Source of the DNA: Atractiella rhizophila
Lineage: Eukaryota
Assembly: GCA_021432655.1 (NCBI GenBank)
Contig: MU271624.1
Span: 1 to 38,243 of the forward strand
Direction: 5' to 3'
DNA length: 38,243 bases
The notes under the pieces are model-generated. The model searched no databases. It worked only from the letters and a program-made list of their open reading frames with translations, and was not told the origin of the DNA. Numbering within the stretch: position 1 is the first letter of the stretch; each line of letters begins with the position of its first letter. The position numbers and the translations under genes were made by a program. Shown one piece after another: positions 7,014-37,052 of this stretch.

Positions 7014-8492
7014 CCCGTCCTCCAGGTGGACCTAACCAGCTAGGTATGTTTGAGCTCCGACGAATGACTGGCCCGTTCCATCCCATCTCATCCTGCCCCA
7101 CCCTCACCTCATCTGGCCGCGGAGGCCGCAGAGGAGGTCCTGGGACGGGGATGGTTTGTTCCGATCGAACAGTTTCTGTGGTGGGAACAGGGAGGGAGAG
7201 GACGGAAATTGCATCCTCCGACTTTGGCGATTCGATCTTTTCCAACAAGGGAGGGTGAGGAGGGTCGAAAGAGAGGGAATCTCGGATTGGTCGTCGGACA
7301 TCTGAGATGACGAGGTCGATGAGATAGATGTAGGTCTGAACGACGCTGAGGAAGCGTCCAACAGGGGTTTCTGAGAATCCGAGGATGGGAAAGTTGGGGA
7401 CGGCGTTCGCGACACCTATTACATTTCCGAACAACACCGGGAAGGCACTTTTGTTCGCAGGCACTTGTCAACAATCATAATTTTGGATCGAGGGGAGGAC
7501 GCACTCGCGATAGTTCTCCCAACGCGGTTTATGGTCCACTGTGTAGGTCGACTCGACAATTTTGATCGTGAAGATGGCAAGATAGGCAATCTGTAGCCCA
7601 TGACTGGCACGATTGACGACTGCGAATTTATTGACATCCTGCGGATCCAACACGCAGCAAAGAACGCAACTTCAGTACCATGTCGTGGGAGAGGGGAGAA
7701 GAAAGACGAACAGTCAAGAATCCTATCCTCCATAACGCCTCCAACACTCCCACGGCAACGACGACGGCGAGCATGGTGAACTTAATCATGCTCCCTGTGA
7801 TGCCGAAGCGTTCCCAGCTAGCAGAATGGAGGACAACCTCTCCCTCCCTAGGACGGAAGCTCCACCGACTAAGACGACGCATCACACTCTGTTGCTCCAA
7901 TCCTGTCTTGATGATGATCTTTTTCTCGAGGACTGCGGCTTGAGTGGCGCGCCGGTAGAGGTAGAGGAGACGGAAGACGGTGGTGCCAGCTAAGAAGAGA
8001 GTGGTGGTGATGGAGAGGGAGGAGAGACGGATAGTGCTCGTCCCTTGCGAATAGAGCAGGTTTCCCAAGTCGATGATTCCCCCAAAGAGCGAGAAGAGTG
8101 TGGAGAGCAGGATGTAGAGTAAGGGACGGTTGAGGCGTGCGAGTCCGATCCAAACCGTTCCTACCCCTAGACCGAGGATGCCGATGGAGATGAGGGGGAT
8201 ATCAGCTACGAGCTGCAATCCACCGGTCCATCAGTTTGCGACTTGACAGTGGGAGAACGAGTGACAGACGAACCTGCTCTATCATCAGACTGTTCGACCA
8301 CCTCACTCCGAACGGCATCTCGAAGATGGCAGCTGAGAAAGCCTCGAACCCAGTGACTTTGCCATCGGTCGCATTCGAGCTGAAGGATGACGCAAGAGAA
8401 GAGGAGGAGTTAGATGTTGAGGAGTGGGTGGAATTGACATGGGCGGCGGCGCGGATAGTGAGGTGGACAAAGGATTTGGCAGGATGTGACAT
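7014..8492 (-). CDS. Predicted 7-TM integral membrane protein, copy 1 (3' end runs into the gap)
   Basis: Exons ~8492-8274, 8212-7712, ~7640-7505 and 7464-gap, joined by GT-AG introns. Seven hydrophobic segments are followed by a Pro/Ser-rich tail. The HSASWERFG motif resembles an uncharacterised basidiomycete membrane family (from recall). Confidence 0.8.
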
Positions 8493-11400
8493 TTTCTTTT
8501 GAGAGAAAGAACGATTGGGTTAGGTTGGAAAGAACGAATAGGCCGGCTTTCGAGTGAAAAGTCAGGCCAGCTTGTCGCAACCATTTGTTAGTAAAAGTGA
8601 ACAGCTGAAGGAAGGAAAGCATAGATGGCATACCTGACCAAGTGTACAACCGGCCAGCGTTTTACTTTTACCAAATCAAAAGAGAAAAAGAGGTCGACGT
8701 TGTACAACTGCAAGAGCTCGACGTCGATGCTCGTTACGCATCAAGGCTCCAGTTACTCAACAGTAGCTCGCTCCTCCGAGGCGAAGGTTGGAGGTGGGCA
8801 GATGGAGAGGGCGGGAGAAAGAGTTATGAATTGTCGATTGTCGTCCAGACAACCGAGGAAGCAGGCGACTCTGCTTCCAGCTTCTTGCGACCTTTCTATT
8901 ATTCAAAGGGTGTGGGCAGATCGCAACGCTTTTGTTGAACACCTACCTAGAGCTCTTGCTCTTGCTCGCACGTCACAGCTTCTTCCTTATCCCAACCTCT
9001 TTCAGAACAAGCTGATTCCTTCGGTGCAAATTGCTCGACCTCCCAGCGAATTCGAGCTCACTGATGTACACAACACATAGAAACAACAAAAGGAATGGAG
9101 ATGAAGAAGCTGAGGTCGCTGAGACTTTGAGGAAAGGTCAATGCGAAACGCGTGTCGTTTCTTTCGATCATAGAACAATAGATGATATCCGTCCGCCCGC
9201 TGAACCCAAAAGAGTTTACGGTTGGCACAGGGTTTGGATAGGATGGGAAACGCGAAGTACGCAGACCAGTTTCTGTAGGAAGTTGAGGTTGACGTGACCA
9301 GGTGCGAGTTCATGTGCTCGCGATTTGACATTTTGAACTCAGCTTCAGCTTCAGCGGTCCGCTATTTGACATGCTTCAATCCTGTTATGTTCATTATCAT
9401 ACACAATTTTGCTAGTAAAATCTCAAACATCGGGAAGTCGTCCCCGGCCTATTGAAGGCAATATTTTTGACAAGTAGTTAACAGTCGTTCTCTATCGAGG
9501 TAGTTGCCTTGGTCGCTCAGCGTAAACTTATGAACCTGAAGTTTGCATTTCGACCTACATGTAGCATGAAAACTTCTCCACTACCCACTTCTTTCCACAT
9601 TTCATTCTCGGCCGTCCTGGGTCGTACAATTTTTCGCAGAAGACGTCCTTTGGTCTGGTTATTCTACAGCTCAAGTATGCGAAGAGAGGAAACATCAGGG
9701 GTTCAAACAGAGTACTTGCCGAAGATGGTCCCTTCCCAGAGGGCTAGTCGTTGGACGTACTATATAACAAGAACAACATTGGACGATGCCATGTTAGGTA
9801 GTAGATTCTTGTCATAATGGTGTTTGTTTGCGCACGTCACATCTTCATCTTTTTCCAATCTTTGTCTCCATTGCTTAAATGACCATTATTCGGTGAAGAA
9901 GTGGCTGTAATGGATGCGGCTTATGACAGAAATTATTCTGCTAGCTTTTCCAGTCAAGCTGACTCCGCCTCGTAGAATTGTGGACCAGGTGGACCTAACC
10001 AGCTAGGTATGTTTGAGCTCCGACGAATGACTGGCCCGTTCCATCCCATCTCATCCTGCCCCACCCTCACCTCATCTGGCCGCGGAGGCCGCAGAGGAGG
10101 TCCTGGGACGGGGATGGTTTGTTCCGATCGAACAGTTTCTGTGGTGGGAACAGGGAGGGAGAGGACGGAAATTGCATCCTCCGACTTTGGCGATTCGATC
10201 TTTTCCAACAAGGGAGGGTGAGGAGGGTCGAAAGAGAGGGAATCTCGGATTGGTCGTCGGACATCTGAGATGACGAGGTCGATGAGATAGATGTAGGTCT
10301 GAACGACGCTGAGGAAGCGTCCAACAGGGGTTTCTGAGAATCCGAGGATGGGAAAGTTGGGTACTGCGTTCGCAACACCTATTACATTTCCGAACAACAC
10401 CGGGAAGGCACTTTTGTTCGCAGGCACTTGTCAACAATCATAATTTTGGATCGAGGGGAGGACGCACTCGCGATAGTTCTCCCAACGCGGTTTATGGTCC
10501 ACCGTGTAGGTCGACTCGACAATTTTGATCGTGAAGATGGCAAGATAGGCAATCTGTAGCCCATGACTGGCACGATTGACGACTGCGAATTTATTGACAT
10601 CCTGCGGATCCAACACGCAGCAAAGAACGCAACTTCAGTACCATGTCGTGGGAGAGGGGAGAAGAAAGACGAACAGTCAAGAATCCTATCCTCCATAACG
10701 CCTCCAACACTCCCACGGCAACGACGACGGCGAGCATGGTGAACTTAATCATGCTCCCTGTGATGCCGAAGCGTTCCCAGCTAGCAGAATGGAGGACAAC
10801 CTCTCCCTCCCTAGGACGGAAGCTCCACCGACTAAGACGACGCATCACACTCTGTTGCTCCAATCCTGTCTTGATGATGATCTTTTTCTCGAGGACTGCG
10901 GCTTGAGTGGCGCGCCGGTAGAGGTAGAGGAGACGGAAGACGGTGGTGCCAGCTAAGAAGAGAGTGGTGGTGATGGAGAGGGAGGAGAGACGGATAGTGC
11001 TCGTCCCTTGCGAATAGAGCAGGTTTCCCAAGTCGATGATTCCCCCAAAGAGCGAGAAGAGTGTGGAGAGCAGGATGTAGAGTAAGGGACGGTTGAGGCG
11101 TGCGAGTCCGATCCAAACCGTTCCAACCCCTAGACCGAGGATGCCAATGGAGATGAGGGGGATATCAGCTACGAGCTGCAATCCACCGGTCCATCAGTTT
11201 ACGACTTGACAGTGGGAGAACGAGTGACAGACGAACCTGCTCTATCATCAGACTATTCGACCACCTCACTCCGAACGGCATCTCGAAGATGGCAGCTGAG
11301 AAAGCCTCGAAACCAGTGACTTTGCCATCGGTTGCATTCGAGCTGAAGGATGACGCAAGAGAAGAGGAGGAGTTAGATGTTGAGGAGTGGGTGGAATTGA

Positions 11401-12960
11401 CATGGGCGGCGGCGCGGATAGTGAGGTGGACAAAGGACTTGGCAGGATGTGACATTTTCTTTTGAGAGAAAGAACGATTGGGTTAGGTTGGAAAGAACGA
11501 ATAGGCCGGCTTTCGAGTGAAAAGTCAGGCCAGCTTGTCGCAACCATTTTGTTAGTAAAAGTGAAAAGCTGAAAGGAAGGAAAGCATAGATGGCACACCT
11601 GACCAAGTGTACAACCGGCCAGCGTTTTACTTTTACCAAATCAAAAGAGAAAAAGAGGTCGACGTTGTACAACTGCAAGAGCTCGACGTCGATGCTCGTT
11701 ACGCATCAAGGCTCCAGTTACTCAACAGTAGCTCGCTCCTCCGAGGCGAAGGTTGGAGGTGGGCAGATGGAGAGGGCGGGAGAAAGAGTTATGAATTGTC
11801 GATTGTCGTCCAGACAACCAAGGAAGCAGGCGACTCTACTTCCAGCTTCTTGTGACCTTTCTATTATTCAAAGGGTGTGGGCAGATCGCAACGCTTTTGT
11901 TGAACACCTACCTAGAGCTCTTGCTCTTGCTCGCACGTCACAGCTTCTTCCTTATCCCAACCTCTTTCAGAACAAGCTGATTCCTTCGGTGCAAATTGCT
12001 CGACCTCCCAGCGAATTCGAGCTCACTGATGTACACAACACATAGAAACAACAAAAGGAATGGAGATGAAGAAGCTGAGGTCGCTGAGACTTTGAGGAAA
12101 GGTCAATGCGAAACGCGTGTCGTTTCTTTCGATCATAGAACAGTGGATGATATCCGTCCGCCCGCTGAACCCAAAAGATATTTAAGTTTACGGTTGGCAC
12201 AAGTTTTGGATAGGATGGGAAACGCTGGGAAACGCGAAGCACTCAGACCAGTTTCTGTAGGAAGTTGAGGTTGACGTGACCAGGTGCGAGTTCATGTGCT
12301 CGCGATTTGACATTTTGAACTCAGCTTCAGCGGTCCGCTATTTGACATGCTCCAATCCTGTTATGTTCATTATCACACACAATTTTGCCAGTAAAAAATC
12401 TCAAACATCGGGAAATCGTCCCCAGCCCATTGAAGGCAATATTGTTGACAAGTAGTTAACAGTTGTTCTCTATCGAGGTAGTTGCCTTGGTCGCTCAGCG
12501 TAAACTTATGAACCTGAAGTTTGCATTTCGACCTACATGTAACATGAAAACTTCTCCACTACCCACTTCTTTCCACATTTCAGTCTCGGCCGCCCTGGGT
12601 CGTGCAATTTTCGCAGAAGACGTCCTTTGGCCTGGTTATTCTACAGCTCAAGTATGCGAAGAGAGGAAACATCAGGGGTTCAAACAGAGTACTTGCCGAA
12701 GATGGTCCCTTCCCAGAGGGCTAGTCGTTGGACGTACTATATAACAAGAACAACATTGGACGATGCCATGTTAGGTAGTAGATTCTTGTCATAATGGTGT
12801 TTGTTTGCGCACGTCACATCTTCATCTTTTTCCAATCTTTGTCTCCATTGCTTAAATGACCATTATTCGGTGAAGAAGTGGCTGTAATGGATGCGGCTTA
12901 TGACAGAAATTATTCTGCTAGCTTTTCCAGTCAAGCTGACTCCGCCTCGTAGAATTGTGG
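7022..12960. repeat. Direct tandem duplication: copy 1 7022-9983, copy 2 9985-12960
   Basis: Both copies begin ccaggtggacctaaccagc and end ctccgcctcgtagaattgtgg. They are colinear throughout, with scattered SNPs and small non-coding indels, and the ORF track repeats at an offset of ~2963. Confidence 0.97.
9954..11455 (-). CDS. Predicted 7-TM membrane protein, copy 2, C-terminally truncated at the duplication junction (~440 aa)
   Basis: Protein identical to copy 1 up to ...WLGPPG, then PQFYEAESA-stop read from sequence across the junction. Confidence 0.75.
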
Positions 12961-25985: not shown

Positions 25986-27956
25986 ATGCTGCCTACACTT
26001 CTTGGGGAAGAAGGAGGGCCTGGTAGGGGGGGTGCTACTCTTTCTTCCAGACGGGGGTCCAAACCACGTTTTTCTCGCAGTAAGAAAGGTTGGTTCTTGA
26101 TCGAAGTTGCCACTTGAACCAGCGACTGACCATTGGTTCTGAATACTTCAGGTTGCTTGACTTGCCGACAACGTCGGGTAAAATGTGGCGAAGAAAAGCC
26201 TGAATGTGCGAATTGCGGACGGCTATACCTCAACTGTGTCTATCCAAAGACCCCTGAACCTGCAACTCAGGATCTCACAGACCAAGACCAACAGTCCGAT
26301 TCTCAAGCAGCAGCCTCCTCCCAACCACCTGCGCAGCCGACTTCTCAAAAAGCTTCAACATCATCTCAGGTGCCAGACCAGAATCTCCACATCTCTCAAC
26401 CATCATCCTCGTCCACTGTTCGTTCGAGCGCTCTCCCGATCGCTCCCAAAGGCACATCGCGCGGTCCACCAAAAGGTCAACGAGACTCGGTTAACCGGCC
26501 TATGCAGTCCACATCGAAGACGGAACAACCCATCCCGCCACTCGCACAAACCGCACCGGGATCCTCTTCACTCTCGCATGAGGAAGTCGAAAAGCAAGGT
26601 GGTGTATTCCCACAAGAACGACCAATCCAATTATCAGTTCAAGACGCCAGTCTCATTCGACACTTCCTAGACGTCCTTGCACCGACAGCCAAAGCTATTG
26701 AACCTCGACAGCCCAATATTCTTCTCGAACTGTTTGGAGCCTCCCTCTTCTGCGCTCCACTTCATGATGGTGAGCGGATATTCAAAATAACAGGGCTGAC
26801 ACTTAGGAATAGGGCTCATTGCGTATTCTGCGCTCCATCTCAGCAGGCGGACAGATCGACCTGATCTCCTGAATATCGCTCATTCTAAACATCAGAGGTC
26901 TTTGATGCTTCTCAAGTACCCTTGGGATAGTTCCGCTGCCTCGCTTAACATTGATCTCATTCTTCCGACTTTGGTCATTTACGCTCTATGGGAGGTCAGC
27001 AACGGGACTACTTCTCAAGCAATGGACCTAGTTTTCGACATGGCAAGAGAAGCACTAGCTCTCACAAACAATACCTTTGCGACCTTGTCTTCCATCGCTC
27101 AATCCAGCGCTATTATTCTCGCTCGCCTTTGCCTTACCTCATCCTCCTTCGGAGCTAGGGTGCCAAAATTCGCGCATTGGCTCCTGCAGCCTACTTTCGG
27201 AACTTCAGTAGGTGAAAACCTTACCGTCGACGTTCCTTCTGAGTACATAGACTGGTTACAGTGAGGCAATTGTTTATTCGCGATCAGCGTTGACATTAAA
27301 GGGATAATATAGACTTTATCAATTTGCAGTTCGAGCCTCGATGCTCGATCGCGAACTGCAATCCCTTCGCAGCTCCTTCGCGACCACAGAGCAATTTGAC
27401 GTCGTGATCCAAGGGGGCAAGACCATACTTCAAAGTATGACTTCGTTCAAGGACCAACTGGAGAGCGGCGACAATCTCCAGCAGATTTATGACATCGCCA
27501 ACGTCCCAATCGTTTCTGTCAATTTTACCCCCGACTTGCTCAACCTCCTCTACAAATCAGTGTTTTTCAACTCTCTCGTCATTTATCTCAGCCGAATTAT
27601 CCACATTCGACCCGACGGTCTTTATAGTTCGAAAATTGTAACAGCTGCAGCGAGGATAGCCCAATCTGGAGAGGAGCCTTCATACCATATCTTCCCTCGT
27701 TGCTTGTTTTTAGCAGGGTTGGAAGCTCGCAACTCCCAGGATGTAAGTGCCCTTCCCCATGAACTATGCTTTACTGATGCCTTACAATCTCCAGTATCAC
27801 TGGATATCGGCTTGCTTCGACCGTATGGCTTCCGCTGGTTGGATCTCTACCAAACCAAAGCAGCTTATGGACCAAATCCGTGAGGAAGAAACCAAATCTG
27901 GACGAATGCAGTTGGCGGAAACCATCCTACGATCCGAGCATTTGGTTGTTTTGTGA
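25986..27956 (+). CDS. Zn(II)2Cys6 fungal transcription factor, multi-exon
   Basis: RSKKG|CLTCRQRRVKCGEEKPECANCGRLYLNCVYP with a phase-1 intron at G, followed by a helical fungal-TF-specific-like region ending ...FPRCLFLAGLEA. Confidence 0.9.
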
Positions 27957-28408
27957 TTGTGATATTGAATGTGACAAAGTTGTGCACCGTAGGTCTCAGC
28001 ACTTCTGTTTGTATTAGTTCTGCTTGTTTGCTACGTAACAGGCTATTGGTAGGTTAGTCGCAGTGAAGTATATCTCATATGTAAATAGTACACGGTGACA
28101 AGTTCCCAATGGTTGATAGACTCTAAAGTTTCTCTTGGTTCGGAAACGGTGCATCCTCAGGCTGTCCCGAGTCAGACAGTCCAACCAGCAGGGTTCAAGT
28201 TGTAAAACCTTCGCATCGATCGACGGGCCACCTAGGAAGCTTCATCCGACTTTATGGTGTAGTAACAGGACGTTTAGATCCTTTAGATCATCTCTAGACA
28301 CAGTTAAACGAGGAACATTGTAGCGTGGCCAAGCCACGAAGTTAAGATACGAGTCAACGCTCCCTGGCCTACACACCACGTCCACTCAAACGCTCCCTTC
28401 GCAACGTC

Positions 28409-29992
28409 ATGGCTACTCTGAGCTCCGAGATCGGCATATCTTCCGCTGGACATCAGAAGCGTTTGGAACGGGAGAGGAAACGAGAGGAAAAGAGGACAGC
28501 TCAGAAGATTGCAGAAGCATCTGAACCCCCTCCTTCGATAAAGAGGGAATGGGAAGATATACCGAAACTGTCAATGGATGGAGAATCGGGAGATTATGAC
28601 ACCTGGAAGTTGAAGATTGTCAGTTGGAATGTGAGTCTCCGTCCCTTTCGCTCCAATCCTCGCTGATAACGTGGATCACAGGCTTTGGCGCAGGCACTGA
28701 TTAAGAGGGAGCTATTTCCAGGATCTGATTGTTTGCGGTGGAATCAACGAGGACCCTTTATCATGAAAGAGGTCTTGCAGCACTCTCCAAGCGTTGCTTG
28801 CCTACAGGTTTGTAGTTAGTCTCGGTGTTATCATCCTTTTGATGTTTCGAAGGAAGTAGATTCAGATCGATTGGCTTCTACCCATTCTGCAACCTTGCGT
28901 TCAGCGGGATACTCCTACGCTTTCACTACTGGATATGAGAAGAAGCATCACGGTCTACTCGTCGCCTGGAAGGACTCCGAATTCTCAAAGATGTCTGAGA
29001 AAGTCGTTCTTCTAGATGATTTCGAGATTGAGCCTGGGAGGAAAGGAGGAAGTCGGACGACGAGGAATCTCGCTCTGTTGGTTGCGCTTAAAAGGACCAA
29101 TGGAGAAGGAGGGATAGTGGTGTCAAATACCCATCTGTTCTGGCACCCGTCTTACGTTTACGAAAGGGCCAGACAGTGTGGCATCATCGTGAGAGCCGCG
29201 AGAGAATTTCGAGAGACGGAACTTGGAGGGAAGTCGTGGCCTTGCGTTTTAGCGGGGGGTTCGTGATGTGGATCTTTCGCTTGTCATCCTAATAAAGCTG
29301 GCGATAGACTTCAACGTTCAGCCATCAGAGATCGCGTATTCCCTCCTCGCAGGCACATCCTGTTCTTCTCTCACCGAAACCCAAGTGTCTGAATTCGAAA
29401 GCTCTCGAATCATCCATGTTTCCCTAGATCCTCCATATCCTCCACACCCCAAACTACCATGGATGCGGAAGAAGACGACACAGATCGAGTCCTCTCCAAC
29501 TTCCGTCCCGCCAAGGTCAGCGACAAGCTGCTCACTCTCGAAGAGATCGTCCAACTGTACGGCGGTCTACGATTGAAGTCGAGCTACGGATCATACCATC
29601 ACCTCCTCCCGTCTAACAACGCCTTTCTCCCGCAAAATATGCCTTCCCGCCATCTCTCTTCCCCCTTCTTCTTCAATCGTATTGGAGGAAATGGAATGGT
29701 TTATCGGGATAGTGCCTCCCTCCCCTCGCAATCTTCCGAGTCTGACGATACCTCAAATGCGAAACTTCCTTTTCCGCATGAGAGGCCAGGAGCGTTCGAG
29801 CCTTCTTTTACAAACTTCACGCCGTTGTGGAGATGCACTCTGGACTACATCTTTGTGGAATGTGACGGCAGGCGGCGCGTCGCGTCCCTCATGACCATTC
29901 CCCCAGCTGGAAGCCTTGAGCCTGGGCTGCCGAGGAAAGGGGTTGGCATATCAGACCACATCCCAATAGGAGCTGTCTGGGAGATAACCTAG
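28409..29992 (+). CDS. NGL2: Ngl2/Angel-type CCR4-family EEP nuclease/phosphatase, with an apparent frameshift near 29430
   Basis: IVSWN|ALAQALIKRELFPGSDCLRW, ACLQ|EVD, NTHLFWHP, ERARQ, LAG|DFN, FTNFTP, TLDYIF and SDHIPI: the full EEP catalytic motif set without LRRs. Confidence 0.85.
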
Positions 29993-30231
29993 ACAAATGA
30001 GAAAGGTTAACGATAACGTTGCAGTGAGGTGAGGTCGGTGGCTAGGACTCTTGAAATACAATTCTTCTTCATTGATTCGTCAACTGCGAACAAAGGCTAT
30101 GAACAATTTTTCAACGACTCATCATCAGAGAAAACCAGGCAGCCGAACTCAGGCATGAAATACGCAGCGGAAATATAGCTAATAGAAAAGTATCGAAATA
30201 TGGACACAAATTCATATCCAGAAACGGGAAA

Positions 30232-30995
30232 CTAGTACTCATGCTGTTGCTGTTGGCAATCAGGACAAGTGTGAGTATGATGCTGACACTGTGTAAGCTT
30301 TGCAGACAGATCTTGACGCATTACGTCTCTTTCGTATCTGAGATTATCCACGATAGTCTTCAGTTTGATATTTTCGTTCGTCAATTGCTCGACCTCTGAG
30401 TAACATGAGTTAACACGGAAGTAAGAAAACTGAAAGCTACGCACTCCCTGACAAGTTGTCAATCCATGCCTTCTTTTTCTTTCGTGACTTAGCAGCGGAT
30501 ACTCGATTTTTGGCAAGGCGTTCTTCTCGCGTTTCGGTGTACTTCTGAGGTAAAGTCCCCGATTTCTTCTTTTGTGAGCTTGAGCTCTTCTTCTGTTATC
30601 CGCAGACACCGTGAGAAAAGGAAACTGGAAGAGCCACGAGCGTACCTCGCTGTAATCCGACCCAGAGTCTGATGCAGGCGAAGGAGCAGGGGATGGAGAC
30701 GAATCCATATGTGCGACAGGATTTGGATAAGAGGGCGATTGAGCAATCGTATCGTACTCTGACGAGGGGGGTAGAGGAGGGAGGAAGCCTAAGAAACGAC
30801 ATTATTTTTTCTGACCCACCAGACCGGCAAACAAGGACATTGATTGGACTTGCCTAGAAAAGGGTTTCCGTATGAGCTCGTGGAGGCTTGGAAAGCGGAA
30901 GGTGGCAAGCCAGCCTGAAAACTCGATCGTTGCAGCGCGTGCAAATTGGCTGCGAACGCGTCTTCGTTTAACAGCTGTGGACTTTCGAACATCAT
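30232..30995 (-). CDS. bZIP transcription factor A (ATF/CREB-like basic region), 4 exons
   Basis: The spliced product contains TLPQKYTETREERLAKNRVSAAKSRKKKKAWIDNLSG|KVEQLTNENIKLKTIVDNLRYERDVMRQDL...HTHTCPDC. The basic region is not shown in the ORF track. Confidence 0.88.
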
Positions 30996-31161
30996 GACAA
31001 GAGGTGGATCGACGAGTTGGGTCAGGTTGGATCAGGTCGTTAAGCGTCGAGAGAGGGGGGCAGCCGTCGCTCAGTTGACGAAAGCTGGGGCAAAAAAGGG
31101 CCATCGCCGCAGGGGAAGAATGGTAAAGAGGAAATTTAAGCGACGCTTCGCAGCGGGTCCG

Positions 31162-31196
31162 TTTGACGTCAAATGACAAGAAACTTTGTGACGTAA
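31162..31196. promoter_or_regulatory. CRE-type elements: TTTGACGTCAAA palindrome (31162-31173) and TGACGTAA (31189-31196)
   Basis: Exact CRE octamer plus a one-mismatch variant, 170-200 bp upstream of bZIP A. Confidence 0.5.
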
Positions 31197-32063
31197 CCGA
31201 TGAAGTGTTGAAACACAGGCCCATCCAGGCCCTCGGCATTGGATTGTTTTCGAGATAAGGATTGGCCGGAAAAGAAGCGCGCTGCTGTCAACCTTGAACT
31301 CGACTTTGCGGCATCGAGATCTGTCAGATCTGTCGCAGCTTGGCGATGAGCATTTAGGGGAGCAACCTTCGTGGAGAATAACTTCAAGGCAAGTCCTTCA
31401 AAACTTCTACATCCACATCCAAGTCCCCAGCAACTTTCCAGGGCCATGTCGTCAACTCAACTGTCGAAAAACCTCGATCCCTGGACACTGTTCTAAACGT
31501 CGCTTTCCTGGAGATCTGTAATAAATCTCATAGGTTTTGACGCAGCTTCTTGATCAGAAGAAGCTTCAGATCACCTTGAATTCTGAATCACGTGACAGAT
31601 TACATGACCGTGGGTCAAACACCCTCTCGAAACGAAGCCAGGAATACAACATACAACATTCCTGTCCAAAGACGCTTCTGAAGAGCAGCAAAGCGACCCT
31701 GAATCTAAATCAAATGCAGGAGTCGTTGAACGCTGAAACGGGGTCCCGTTGGAGTATCTGAGACCGGTCGAGTAATTGTGGGAGGTTGTACTATCTCCTG
31801 TACAATATATATGCTAATGCGTAGTCATGATCGTGCGAAAAGCTGTGAAGCACGCGAAGTGTTGTTACAAATGCATTTATATCGAACCCAAATTGAGATA
31901 TTGAATTTTGGGGGTTTCAGTCCTCCATCCTTTCACGCTCCTACGCTTTGTTGGTCGTCATTTGCTCACAACCATAGTCACTTGTGAGAATCTTACGCAA
32001 CATCTTTCCTCCCAATCCACCGTGTTCACCCAATTTTGCGAGACGGAATACACAAAATCTGGG

Positions 32064-33327
32064 ATGTCGCTCCCCTCAAACGGTGGAGCCTGGCTGCCAG
32101 ATAGCGGGCTCGACCCGCGAGCCTACACCTTGAGCGGGGTTGTGGCTGCAACTGGACTTTGGGTTGATCAAAACCAGCCCCTCGATTCTGGGTTCCCCAA
32201 CTCAAACGGATACGCTAAAGCGCTACCTGAAGGCTCTCTTGGTGCGCAACAATCTTCCTCTTTTCCCTTCTCTTTCGCTCATACTAAGCTGAAGGCTTTG
32301 AGAAAGGCTCCTCACACAGTGCTCGCGACGAATTTTCGCATCCTGAATACTTTGGCACGGACATACGTTCCACAAGCACCATCGGAAACTCTTTGTCACC
32401 CTCCTTCATTTCTCCATTTCATTCTCACGTTCCTTGTGAGCAATCCTTCGACAGTCAGTTATTCGAAATGTCGACCCAGCAGCAAGCATTGAATGAGAGA
32501 CGCCAAGAGACTAATGACCGTCCGCCTATTTCTTACGTGGTTTCTCAAGACATGCCGAACGAGGGAACCAACCCTCAAGAGACGTCCTCTTTGGTTGGTG
32601 TCTTAGAGATATAATGTTCCCATACTGAAAGAAGTCGAGCTGCAGAACATGCCTCCCGTTCATTTCTACAACCCTTATCCCATAATCATAAATCAGATCG
32701 ATGCTTCGCCGACTGCTTTCACTCCACACCTCCCTCTTCCTGGACAAGATCTCAACACGTCATCTGTGCGCAATGTTCAAGATAGGGCTTGGGGCGAAGG
32801 TAATCGACAGCTCAGCTGGACAACGGGAGTGTCGTCCGAAGAGATCGCCGCGAGTTCAAATGAAGGAGACGAATCCCCTGGATTCGATGGTTCTCCCGAA
32901 GAGCAAAGCTTTCACGCTCAACTAGCAAGTCTCTTCCAATACTATCCTCTCTCGGATTGACTTGTTTGATCTAGATCCCACATCCAAACTCCTCTCCCAT
33001 CATGTATCGATCGAAAAAGCTTCCTCTTAAGCTCACAGAGACGCCGGAAGAAAGACGCCACAAAAATCGAATAAGCGCGACCAAGTCTCGTTTGAAGAAA
33101 AAGGTCTGGGTGGAAAACCTGACGGCTCGTAAGCAGCCTCCGTCCAAACATGATGACCAACTCTAGAGCTCATTTTGGCGAGTGCAGAAGTGCAGGAGCT
33201 CCATGGACAAAATGAAGGTCTCAAGTTGGTGATTGACAATTTAAAGTTGGAGAAGGAACAAATGCAGGAAGAATTAAACAAGAAGGAGCACCTCTGCTCT
33301 CGTTGCAAGAGGTGTGAAGAAAAATGA
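32064..33327 (+). CDS. bZIP transcription factor B, paralogue of A, about 5 exons
   Basis: The spliced C-terminus reads KLPLKLTETPEERRHKNRISATKSRLKKKVWVENLTA|QVQELHGQNEGLKLVIDNLKLEKEQMQEELNKKEHLCSRCKRCEEK-stop. The N-terminal exons are low-complexity and less certain. Confidence 0.85.
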
Positions 33328-33695
33328 AGAGGATGCGTCAAAAACGCCTCCTAAACAATGCATTCCGGTACGCCACTACTTCTCTCCCAAGATGTTTCAA
33401 GAGATGGTCTGAGGATGTGCTAGGGTTTTATCATAGGTATTAACGGTGTTGTCAAAGCATGTTATGTAGCGGCTCTCTCAGTCTCGGGTCAGTGGTTCTC
33501 AGTCTCAGCGTTCTCCACCCCATCGTCACCACCCTCATGATCGACGCTACGCGACGATTAACAAAACATTTGTATCTCTCCTCAGATTTTAACGGCAATT
33601 GTATACAATATCTCTGAGAGTCTGGCTCCTCCAACGCAGAAGTTACGTTCTGAAGCCTCCTTCTATACCCCAAATATACGGCTTTTCGGACGGAC

Positions 33696-33760
33696 CTTTC
33701 CAGCCCCATCCTATGACTTTTGCACCATCTTTCCAGCTTCATCCTAGGACTTTTACACCA
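33696..33760 (+). repeat. Two-copy 33-bp tandem repeat
   Basis: ctttccagccccatcctatgacttttgcacca / ctttccagcttcatcctaggacttttacacca. Confidence 0.8.
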
Positions 33761-34191
33761 CGGAATAGGAAGCATGTAAGCCAAACGTGCCGCATGGTGT
33801 CAACTAGCTTCAACTAACAAATTCATTATCATCACTGAAGTTAAACGCAGTGAATTTGGACGAAAATGCATCTTAGATCCCCAGATTTCGGGATTCATCT
33901 GAGGATACACAAGCGGCCTCAATAAAGCAAATGAACACCGAGTATTGAGAACCGATAAAGCTCCAATAAAGTAATCCAAACGAGGAAGTCATTTGAGCGT
34001 AGAACCGACCCACCAATTTCGCTGAGCTCTCTTTCTCGACACATTCCTCCTGATTGCGTTCTTTCCACATCAACCTCTTAAAGATTACCGTGCCTATGCT
34101 ATCCCAGCCCTTGATGATTGGTTTGCCACATCCCTCTTCAGAAATCGATTGAAGTTGGGATTCAGGGTGGCAATTTTAAGCGACGCGTCCG

Positions 34192-37052
34192 ATGGTGACT
34201 CACGCTGCGGTTCTTTCAACTTCCAACCAGTCACAACCACAACCCCTAAACAACATACCTTCTCATCCCTCTGCTNNNNNNNNNNNNNNNNNNNNNNNNN
34301 NNNNNNNNNNNNNNNNNNNNNNNNNNNNNNNNNNNNNNNNNNNNNNNNNNNNNNNNNNNNNNNNNNNNNNNNNNNNNNNNNNNNNNNNNNNNNNNNNNNN
34401 NNNNNNNNNNNNNNNNNNNNNNNNNNNNNNNNNNNNNNNNNNNNNNNNNNNNNNNNNNNNNNNNNNNNNNNNNNNNNNNNNNNNNNNNNNNNNNNNNNNN
34501 NNNNNNNNNNNNNNNNNNNNNNNNNNNNNNNNNNNNNNNNNNNNNNNNNNNNNNNNNNNNNNNNNNNNNNNNNNNNNNNNNNNNNNNNNNNNNNNNNNNN
34601 NNNNNNNNNNNNNNNNNNNNNNNNNNNNNNNNNNNNNNNNNNNNNNNNNNNNNNNNNNNNNNNNNNNNNNNNNNNNNNNNNNNNNNNNNNNNNNNNNNNN
34701 NNNNNNNNNNNNNNNNNNNNNNNNNNNNNNNNNNNNNNNNNNNNNNNNNNNNNNNNNNNNNNNNNNNNNNNNNNNNNNNNNNNNNNNNNNNNNNNNNNNN
34801 NNNNNNNNNNNNNNNNNNNNNNNNNNNNNNNNNNNNNNNNNNNNNNNNNNNNNNNNNNNNNNNNNNNNNNNNNNNNNNGAAATTGCTTCATGGCTGTTCC
34901 AGGATGCAACTATATATCCCGATCCTGGAGCGAAGGACGATCCAGCATTGGAGAATATCTTCTATTGTAAAGATTGTTTTGCCGCCAGATTCAGTAAAGG
35001 CGACTGGTAGGAAGCCCTCTCCTCATGTAACACCAGCTGATCGGTACACGCAGCGATAACTGTCAAAAGGGGATTCTTGGAGATGAGAAATTTGTTATGC
35101 ATAACACTCGCGCGCCAAATGGTGAGATCAAGAAACGTTTCTGGCACAAGTCCTGCTGCTTTTGCCACTACTGCGAATCTCGGAAGAATATATTCAACAA
35201 TCCGACTGTGGACCCTTTCGGACTCCTTTGTTGTGAAGCGTGCTTTGACAAAGGCGCGTTCCTTCAGTCGTCCCCTGCCGTTGGCGTCCAGAAGTCGTCC
35301 CCAGTTGGTGGCAGCCGATTAGGAGCGAGCACCGACTTCCCTCGAGACTTGAGGATGTCGCTTGGCGGATCTGGGACTAGCAGACCGACTGTTCCAAGGT
35401 TGAGCGAGACCGTTGGGGAAGCGGAACGGAGAAAGAAGTGGTCGGAGCCTGCGCTTGGAACCAGAAGCAGAAAGGAGAGCTTCGATGAACGATCAAGGAT
35501 TGACGCTTCCGAGAGGTCGCGGTGGGACAGATCAAATCCGATCAGTTCTCCTGTTGCCAGCAAAGAACCGATACGACATCACACTACTTCGACATTTCCG
35601 CCCCCCGTCGCATCACGTTCCTCAAACTTTGCTGCTGGCCACGCCGCATCTATGCAATCCACCAGCTCCGAGTCTTCCTTGCCTACTCGAAATATCACCC
35701 GAGAGACAAACAATCCCATCACTAGTCGTGCCTCTCCTCTGGCTCCAATGTTACAGTCCCCCACAGTTTCCTCCCCCTCATCGTTTGGACGGACGTCCCC
35801 TCAAGTCGGCTTGACCGTGGATACAGAACGTGTCCCTTTCCCTGTAGTGGATGGCGAAGGAAAGGATGAAATGAGACCGGAAAGAGTAAATAGCCCACTA
35901 TCTCCGTCAGTAGTGAACGAGATGAGAAAGAAATTTGGAGAACCCGCCATTACGAAAAAACCTGCAGCAATTCCCACCACACGGTCCAAGTCGACGTCTG
36001 CTGCAGATTCAGACGTCCCAACGCCTCCGAAAGTTCTGTTTCCCCGACAACAGGAACGCTTCGACTCGACCTTGTCCTCTAGTTCAGACGCTCCAATTTC
36101 TAAGGGTCCACGCTTCAGTCATAACGCCCGTTCAAAATCAATGAACATGTTTCCTTCAGCGACGGCCAGTCCGGACCCGATGAAGTCTTCCTGCAAAGGC
36201 TGTGGAAACAACCTCTTTTCCATTGATTCAGTGAAAGAAGGAGAGACGCGATTTCTGACGCTCAGGAATTCAGGAGATATGTATCACTTGGAGTGTTTCC
36301 GGTGCGGGAAGTGCGGCATTGGCTTTGAGGAAAAAGGCGGGGGAAGATACGTCGAGGAGGAAGGATGGGGAGCCGTTCACGTCGAAGTTTGTATCACAGT
36401 TTCCCTTGGGTCAATCTGTCCTAATACTTCTGTCATCAGTGCGCGTCGCCACTCCATATGCCTCTCACCTCTAGCCGACCAGTTCCATCTCAACCTCCAC
36501 CGGCGACCCAGAAGCCATACGTTCCAAGGACCTACACTTCCTCCTTCTCTTCTACCACCTCTACATCATCTACGCAAATCAAGTCTCCTACAACCACCTA
36601 CACACCTCCAGTGATCACACCAAGACCATATCAACACCCTTCCTATCCTTATACTCCTACAAGTCCTTCTCCTTCCTTGGGAATGTTTGCGCACGATGAC
36701 GGAAAGAAGGAGCGAGCTCCCGTTCTCAGGAAGCTAGGGGGACTGCCTCCCTGCCCTTCTTGCCTTATACCCGCCACAGTTAGAGAGACAGTGAATGGTC
36801 CAAAAGGACAGAGGGTTCGTCATTTGCGATCATTTTGACAAACCATTTCTGATGTTAGGTGGATAATAGTGGCATGGGTCTTGTCTGAAGTGTTCGGCCG
36901 GTGGTAGAAGAGGAGTTGGGTGTGGAAAAGCTTTAGATAGTGGGGCGAGGGTGATTGAGTACGATAATCTAAAGGGGAAAGCAGAGAAGGCGGTCTGCAG
37001 AGAATGCTTTGGAGCTTTGAATACCAAGTCTCCTAGGCTTGGTGCAGAGTGA
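34192..37052 (+). CDS. Multi-LIM-domain protein; the 5' part spans the gap and the start is uncertain
   Basis: FYCKDCFAARF; CDNC..WHKSCCFCHYC..CCEACF; CKGC..YHLECFRCGKC..HVE|C; LGGLPPCPSC..GPKGQR|WHGSCLKC..GCGKALDS..CRECF. Long Ser/Pro-rich linkers separate the domains. Confidence 0.88.
34276..34878. other. Assembly gap (N run)
   Basis: Run of N bases. Confidence 1.

Follow-up and report, generated by a model that had tools for sequence, protein, structure and literature searches.

The closest described counterparts of the locus presented here are ATF/CREB-type bZIP paralogues that exist in a genome beside a canonical Atf1 orthologue. In Aspergillus, according to the accessible part of PMC10512269, the proteins AtfA-D form all pairwise heterodimers, and in the corresponding part of PMC9785671 AtfB is described as having a bZIP domain only. 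In Schizosaccharomyces pombe, Pcr1 is presented as a short bZIP partner of Atf1 at CRE-like sites (the relevant section of PMC8390427). A different kind of comparison is offered by the HD mating-type loci of basidiomycetes, which, as outlined in the accessible text of PMC12510652, consist of divergent homeodomain genes with allelic differences in their N-termini. In the literature searched, which leaves most subscription journals outside and was surveyed at the level of listings, there was no paper on the two genes described below, on any head-to-head fungal bZIP pair, or on a bZIP expansion in this fungal group.

The two genes, here called A and B, resemble Aspergillus AtfB, AtfC and AtfD in being extra paralogues of this type and in containing only a bZIP domain (Pfam). 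In contrast with AtfB-D, they belong to a clade of their own, for which no close outside relative was found and which occupies 12 loci with decaying copies, and they have an altered basic motif, a terminal CxxC found throughout the family and a head-to-head arrangement; the likeness would be one of function. With the Atf1-Pcr1 pair they have in common the short bZIP, here a candidate partner of Atf1 at CRE-like sites, and neither A nor B corresponds to the Atf1 side, the Aft1_HRA domain being found on C635 only. Among solved structures the best matches are human ATF-2, CREB and AP-1 proteins, over the bZIP domain only, and both A and B have Ser in the basic region at the site of the first Ala of ATF proteins. 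The HD1/HD2 loci are alike in having two divergently transcribed transcription-factor genes (accessible text of PMC12510652), whereas A and B are bZIP rather than homeodomain genes, are paralogues of one family, have near-identical haplotypes and have lost their partners in copies elsewhere.

On balance, A and B probably represent two live loci in a species-level, 12-locus ATF/CREB-type bZIP expansion and serve as subunits of the Atf1 network; no other Atractiellomycete was present among 30 outside matches checked by name, so the expansion may in fact be one of the genus or the class. The family itself is best read as a birth-and-death expansion, in which copies multiply and decay. Were this true, a single root-associated fungus would show the gain and decay of copies in a stress-regulator family with an altered basic region and a kept CxxC tail, and the case would be useful for understanding the growth of bZIP dimer networks, although the process itself is known.

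Structure, transcripts and selection of the A/B pair

The window, i.e., the entire stretch of 38,243 nucleotides analysed, is the whole of contig C445 in an assembly of 51 Mb and 1,998 contigs; its NCBI proteins carry the name Atractiella rhizophila. The pair, its spacer and the gene adjoining it are arranged as follows (X3, X4, X9 and X12 denote RNA runs):

26130..27970, plus strand: Zn2Cys6 gene (Pfam), adjoining the A/B pair
30232..30995, minus strand: gene A, small ATF/CREB-type bZIP, 198 aa, 4 exons
30995-30854, 30788-30646, 30592-30445, 30395-30232, minus strand: exons of gene A
30789..30853, minus strand: GC-AG first intron of A, 65 nt, RNA joint in X3, X4 and X9
30396..30444, minus strand: phase-1 intron of A at the boundary of basic region and zipper, 49 nt, joints in X3 and X9
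30996..32063, no strand: spacer from the ATG of A to the ATG of B, 1,068 bp
32064..33327, plus strand: gene B, ATF/CREB-type bZIP, 345 aa, 5 exons
32064-32241, 32307-32593, 32646-32924, 32975-33128, 33188-33327, plus strand: exons of gene B
33129..33187, plus strand: phase-1 intron of B at the boundary of basic region and zipper, 59 nt, joint in X4, X9 and X12

The layout proposed in the initial annotation, two bZIP genes facing outward about 1.07 kb apart, is therefore confirmed. Both proteins have a basic region with its Asn and Arg and a heptad leucine zipper, and both exceed the Pfam bZIP_1 cut-off of 27.6 bits, with 45.7 for B, whose model is the 345-aa NCBI protein P0001, and 52.4 for A, scored on NCBI model P0005, which has exons 2-4 in common with A. 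The first exon of P0005 (window 30854-31227) was rejected for A, being contradicted by the RNA joint 30786-30852 in three of the four runs and also by the C203 paralogue, in which the GC donor of the first intron of A is likewise present. Over their last 120 C-terminal residues A and B are identical at 47 positions (39%, BLASTP), and upstream of this part BLASTP gives no significant match, in keeping with the dissimilarity of the N-terminal regions noted earlier. The motif, the codon of the phase-1 intron, the zipper register and the Cys tail that had been listed as shared are indeed present in both genes, but they are common to the 12-locus family and not peculiar to the pair.

Four public RNA runs (X3, X4, X9 and X12) among 24 listed were examined as assembled contigs, which show splicing and from which levels, strands and start sites are not readable. 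Spliced contigs of both A and B occur in X3, X4 and X9, while X12 contains B alone at low cover, the missing cover on A in this run being uninformative; each of the seven coding introns of the two genes is documented by a joint in one run or more. X4 and X9, which come from two different studies, carry variants other than those of the assembly, and X3, which has no named study, may represent the source strain. Contig depth favours one gene in X4 and the other in X9, depth being unable to rank the genes.

Estimates of dN/dS were obtained by a counting method. For A and its copy on C203 the ratio is 0.09 over the bZIP domain and 0.18 over the whole (182 codons), with dS about 0.8; for the bZIP domain of B and its copies on C139, C37 and C2 it is 0.24, 0.17 and 0.31, respectively, with dS 0.22-0.27, and between A and B synonymous sites are saturated. 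The earlier concern that one of the genes might be silent or pseudogenic did not hold, as both are spliced in three runs and both are under purifying selection.

Several smaller features of the window were also recorded. The 3' untranslated region of B contains an intron at about 33368-33423, some 40 nt past the stop codon (X3, X4 and X12), and on a longer transcript form of A an upstream frame of 165 codons starts from the ATG at 31104 (31104-30490, minus strand) and overlaps A. The 5' part of this frame is polymorphic, the X4 and X9 contigs begin downstream of it, and X3 has a one-base gap there. Convergent with A lies a gene of the exonuclease/endonuclease/phosphatase family (28346-29992, weak Pfam match), and one X3 contig spans the 3' ends of both. 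At 7022-12960, adjoining an N gap, there is a tandem duplication of about 3 kb with 97.9% identity, which may have arisen recently or may reflect two haplotypes that the assembly placed one after the other.

The 12-locus family and its relatives

Searching the genome with the basic and zipper exons yielded 12 family loci once haplotype pairs were merged (A, C203, two in tandem on C43, C149, C337/C783, C604/C90, B, C139, C37, C2 and C5), a count that is a lower bound. Two bZIP-domain trees were built over 75 columns, the first with outside proteins 1-60 of the 143 parsed and the second with 33 chosen ATF- and AP-1-type proteins; both include 11 of the 12 loci, C5 being omitted because an insertion splits its basic exon and C149 being joined at a non-canonical acceptor. 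In both trees the 11 loci form one clade (support 95/88 and 99/99), inside which six loci make up the A clade and four the B clade and C604 stands by itself, the A/B split being among the deepest. The direct question of whether A and B are sisters, raised in the initial annotation, was answered in the negative (p-AU 1e-11); this is due to the later copies of each gene and therefore says nothing against an old duplication.

Transposon remains adjoin family copies. C43 (57026-60248) carries a tandem of two A-clade bZIP genes with the same strand and a distance of about 2.4 kb, and the NCBI model P0007 of one of them is without a zipper exon. The NCBI model P0008 on C783/C337, of 1,331 aa, joins the basic exon of a family member to a membrane-protein gene that lies upstream, and is probably an annotation error.

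A profile of six family proteins, searched against 1.84 billion representatives, found no close outside relative: proteins in the profile score above 200 bits, versus 71.7 bits at most for outside matches. In sequence the family is nearest to ATF/CREB proteins of the ATF-2 kind, the best solved match of the profile being ATF-2 (1t2k_D, E 1.1e-08), with CREB, Fos and Jun also matching and outside matches being mostly ATF-type. The basic motif with AA, of ATF/AP-1 type, is present in 126 of the 143 parsed outside bZIP regions, and the SA position of the family motif KNR[IV]SAxKSR is common to 16 of them. In the trees the family stands, without a firm position, outside the ATF clade on a long branch (0.71 plus 0.17 in the second tree), and its nesting with the ATF-like gene on contig C452 is not rejected (p-AU 0.38).

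The genome contains two ATF genes with which the family can be compared. Canonical Atf1 is encoded on contig C635, the sole match of the Aft1_HRA domain in the genome, and groups with other fungal Atf1 proteins with support 100/99; its gene has two introns within the basic region and none at the site of the family's phase-1 intron. Pfam finds no Aft1 domains (OSA, HRA or HRR) in A and B, which do not qualify as orthologues of Atf1/AtfA, and the proposed distinction of both genes from Atf1 stands. The second is a larger ATF-like gene on C452/C438, which has a phase-1 intron at the same codon as all 11 family loci examined. Its protein is the second-best outside match of the family profile search, and no family member is closer to Atf1 than to this protein (27-42% vs 33-45%); the trees do not themselves place the family with it, and neither a grouping with it (p-AU as given above) nor one with Atf1 (p-AU 0.18) is rejected. 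Judged mainly by the shared phase-1 intron, the family probably descends from this second ATF-like gene and not from Atf1.

Linkage and spacer in copies elsewhere in the genome

The closer copies of the two genes, one of A (C203) and four of B (C139, C37, C2 and C5), are all without the partner gene. The copy of A on C203 is intact; its contig carries no B, and upstream of the gene lies an element which from its motifs we take to be copia-type. No A was found within 24-40 kb around each of the four B copies, and among the five loci of the B clade the gene is fully intact only in the window: exon 2 of the C139 copy contains a stop, and a transposase-like insertion is also present (its NCBI model is a 171-aa short form), while the C37 copy has a 5' truncation and a frameshift, the C2 copy several stops, and the C5 copy an insertion in the basic exon. 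The earlier suggestion of a cassette kept as a unit is not supported on this point, all five closer copies being single and the pieces of the spacer having separated as well. The split between A and B is deep and their synonymous sites are saturated, which makes an old local duplication plausible. In a metagenome scan for relatives of the locus in other species, none of 210 protein pattern matches was confirmed, and three loci picked up with a 20-base motif were dismissed as chance matches.

The spacer contains the following sites:

31164..31171, no strand: perfect CRE palindrome TGACGTCA, the sole one in the window
31189..31196, plus strand: second CRE-like site TGACGTAA
31448, no strand: breakpoint, the C139 and C5 copies of B matching the window only from here
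31588..31595, no strand: G-box palindrome TCACGTGA, within the B-side portion of the spacer and absent from the C5 copy

The palindrome is the ATF/CREB consensus site (as given in the accessible part of PMC8390427), and the CRE motif had been chosen in advance as the site expected for the family; none of 2000 dinucleotide shuffles gave two CRE-like sites in the spacer. The two sites lie 170-200 bp from the start codon of A and about 870-900 bp from that of B, and this pair of sites points to A as a candidate target of ATF dimers, with no sign from it of shared control of A and B. The spacer has been passed on as two separate pieces. On C203 the segment 31127-31238 is kept (nhmmer E 0.0014), with the counterpart of TGACGTCA degraded by one base and the ACGTCA core of TGACGTAA kept. 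C139 and C5 keep the B side from 31448 onward and C2 from about 31860, and upstream of this part the three have a common sequence that is absent from the window.

As at the pair in the window, a Zn2Cys6 paralogue flanks both the C203 copy of A and the C37 copy of B, with the orientation preserved on C37, and this hints at an old block. The flanking genes on C203 and C37 are not sisters of the Zn2Cys6 gene in the window, and the one on C37, at 69.5%, has diverged much further than the B gene beside it (84%). The Zn2Cys6 genes are themselves a second transcription-factor expansion in this genome, with members on 16 contigs, several of them with stops (besides the window: C203, C304, C270, C3, C248, C2, C71, C94, C37, C1020, C171, C159, C160, C1329 and C1939).

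Dimer partners and competing explanations

Possible partners were compared by counting attractive and repulsive g-e' charge pairs over heptads 1-4, following the general rule as stated in the accessible parts of PMC1479088 and PMC4599898; binding constants for bZIP pairs are referred to in PMC4335062, in its supplement. The counts are +4/0 for A-A, +2/0 for A-B and 0/0 for B-B, +3/0 and +2/0 for A and B, respectively, with Atf1, and +2/-1 and +1/-1 with the C452 protein. The preference for an A-B heterodimer predicted earlier does not emerge from this charge code, A-B showing no gain over the mean of the homodimers, a heptad count being weak evidence: for plant C/S1 bZIPs that do heterodimerise the code predicted homodimers (PMC5662769, as far as its accessible text goes). 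All four zippers (A, B, Atf1 and C452) have Asn at the second 'a' position, and on this rule, as worded in the accessible part of PMC4335062, their pairs are compatible. At the fourth 'a' position Arg or Lys is found in nine of the ten family zippers tabulated and Ile in both ATF genes. A basic residue at 'a' favours a partner with an aliphatic residue there; as Arg would still face Lys in A-B, this pairing would relieve nothing, and Atf1 would be the better partner for B.

In the reading that we prefer, an old local inverted duplication at the locus in the window would have founded the A and B clades, from which later copies left singly. A and B would then work as short subunits of an Atf1 stress network, by analogy with Aspergillus AtfB-D or fission-yeast Pcr1, and would dimerise loosely with Atf1, the C452 protein and each other. 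Atf1-type dimers may bind the two CRE sites beside A and induce it, and output could be tuned at CRE promoters. CRE binding by the predicted bZIP of either A or B is itself not assured, given the Ser that replaces Ala in the basic region.

A dedicated cassette, i.e., an old inverted duplication kept for the sake of a bidirectional CRE-driven promoter and an obligate or preferred A-B heterodimer, would mean that a fungus has two linked bZIP genes under common control whose products heterodimerise, and seems to us improbable. It agrees with the joint presence of spliced A and B in three of the four runs, the deep, saturated split and the Zn2Cys6 flanks of a lone A and a lone B, which fit an old Zn-A-B block. 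Damage in all four unlinked B copies, versus an intact linked B, would likewise fit a need for linkage, and with a basic residue at the fourth 'a' in both proteins and no g-e' salt bridge in B-B, B may need a partner. These points are met by the absence of a charge-pair gain in A-B, where the basic residues still oppose each other, by the strong constraint on the lone C203 copy of A, and by a spacer whose pieces move separately and whose CRE pair, far nearer to A than to B, went with A only. A more far-reaching version appears improbable to the same degree: the locus would be the cradle of a new bZIP subfamily, with a CRE-driven, co-regulated A-B heterodimer of new DNA specificity, whose two CxxC motifs would clamp its C-terminal end, either by binding one metal ion together or through a redox-sensitive bond, and departed B copies would decay for want of a partner. 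The terminal CxxC is invariant in six aligned family proteins, and a metal or redox role for it is speculation. Slightly less remote, yet still unlikely, is the idea that the family left the Atf1 network and acts through independent homodimers of changed DNA specificity, A-A reading a non-CRE site and B acting alone or with the B-like C604/C90 protein. The all-attractive pairs of A-A, the long branch and the derived SA motif speak for it. Opposed basic 'a' residues disfavour homodimers, however, and they occur in every homodimer but one; the two CRE sites next to A also suggest a connection with regulation by ATF proteins.

The layout itself may be young, a doubtful but less improbable proposal that concerns origin only and is compatible with the preferred Atf1-network reading: a B copy would have been inserted at 31448, upstream of A, during the radiation of the B clade (dS about 0.2-0.27). 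The three B copies with a common upstream sequence missing from the window, the unrooted tree, in which C139 is apart from C2 and C5, and the C203 copy of A without B are all in its favour. Rooting on the B of the window, however, gives the same pattern by a single export, and a clade of C139, C2 and C5 is not rejected (p-AU 0.11), so that the upstream sequence fits either one export from the locus or a late arrival of B. Landing by chance beside a family member would also be unlikely in an assembly of 51 Mb, and the linkage of Zn2Cys6 and B on C37 in the same orientation is a further argument against; an old local origin is taken as the likelier of the two. As to the comparison with HD1/HD2 loci, a switch of mating-type or self/non-self kind, which would require divergent alleles of A and B to come together, is largely refuted and to be regarded as extremely improbable. 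It would accord with the outward orientation of two genes for dimerising factors, which HD loci also show (accessible text of PMC12510652), and with the two haplotypes present in the assembly. These haplotypes are near-identical: C725, the second haplotype of the locus, is 99.5% identical, with 29 differences over window 28621-34275, none in the coding sequence of A and four in that of B, two of which change a residue, both outside the bZIP domain. In the runs of two other strains, 10 of 17 listed coding positions are silent and one more is a stop-to-stop change. Of the HD1/HD2 features the divergent gene pair is present, homeodomain classes and divergent alleles are absent, and the two-gene structure is broken in the closer copies within the genome. 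Among the 9 and 11 homeodomain matches in the genome none lies on C445, and none of them could be recognised as the genuine HD mating locus of the genome. The two STE3 receptor genes of the assembly, used as a control, have a protein identity of 33-50% and no BLASTN match to each other.

These deeply diverged STE3 genes, at C314:26517-27406 and C512:21234-22121, fit an assembly that is dikaryotic or diploid and contains both mating types.
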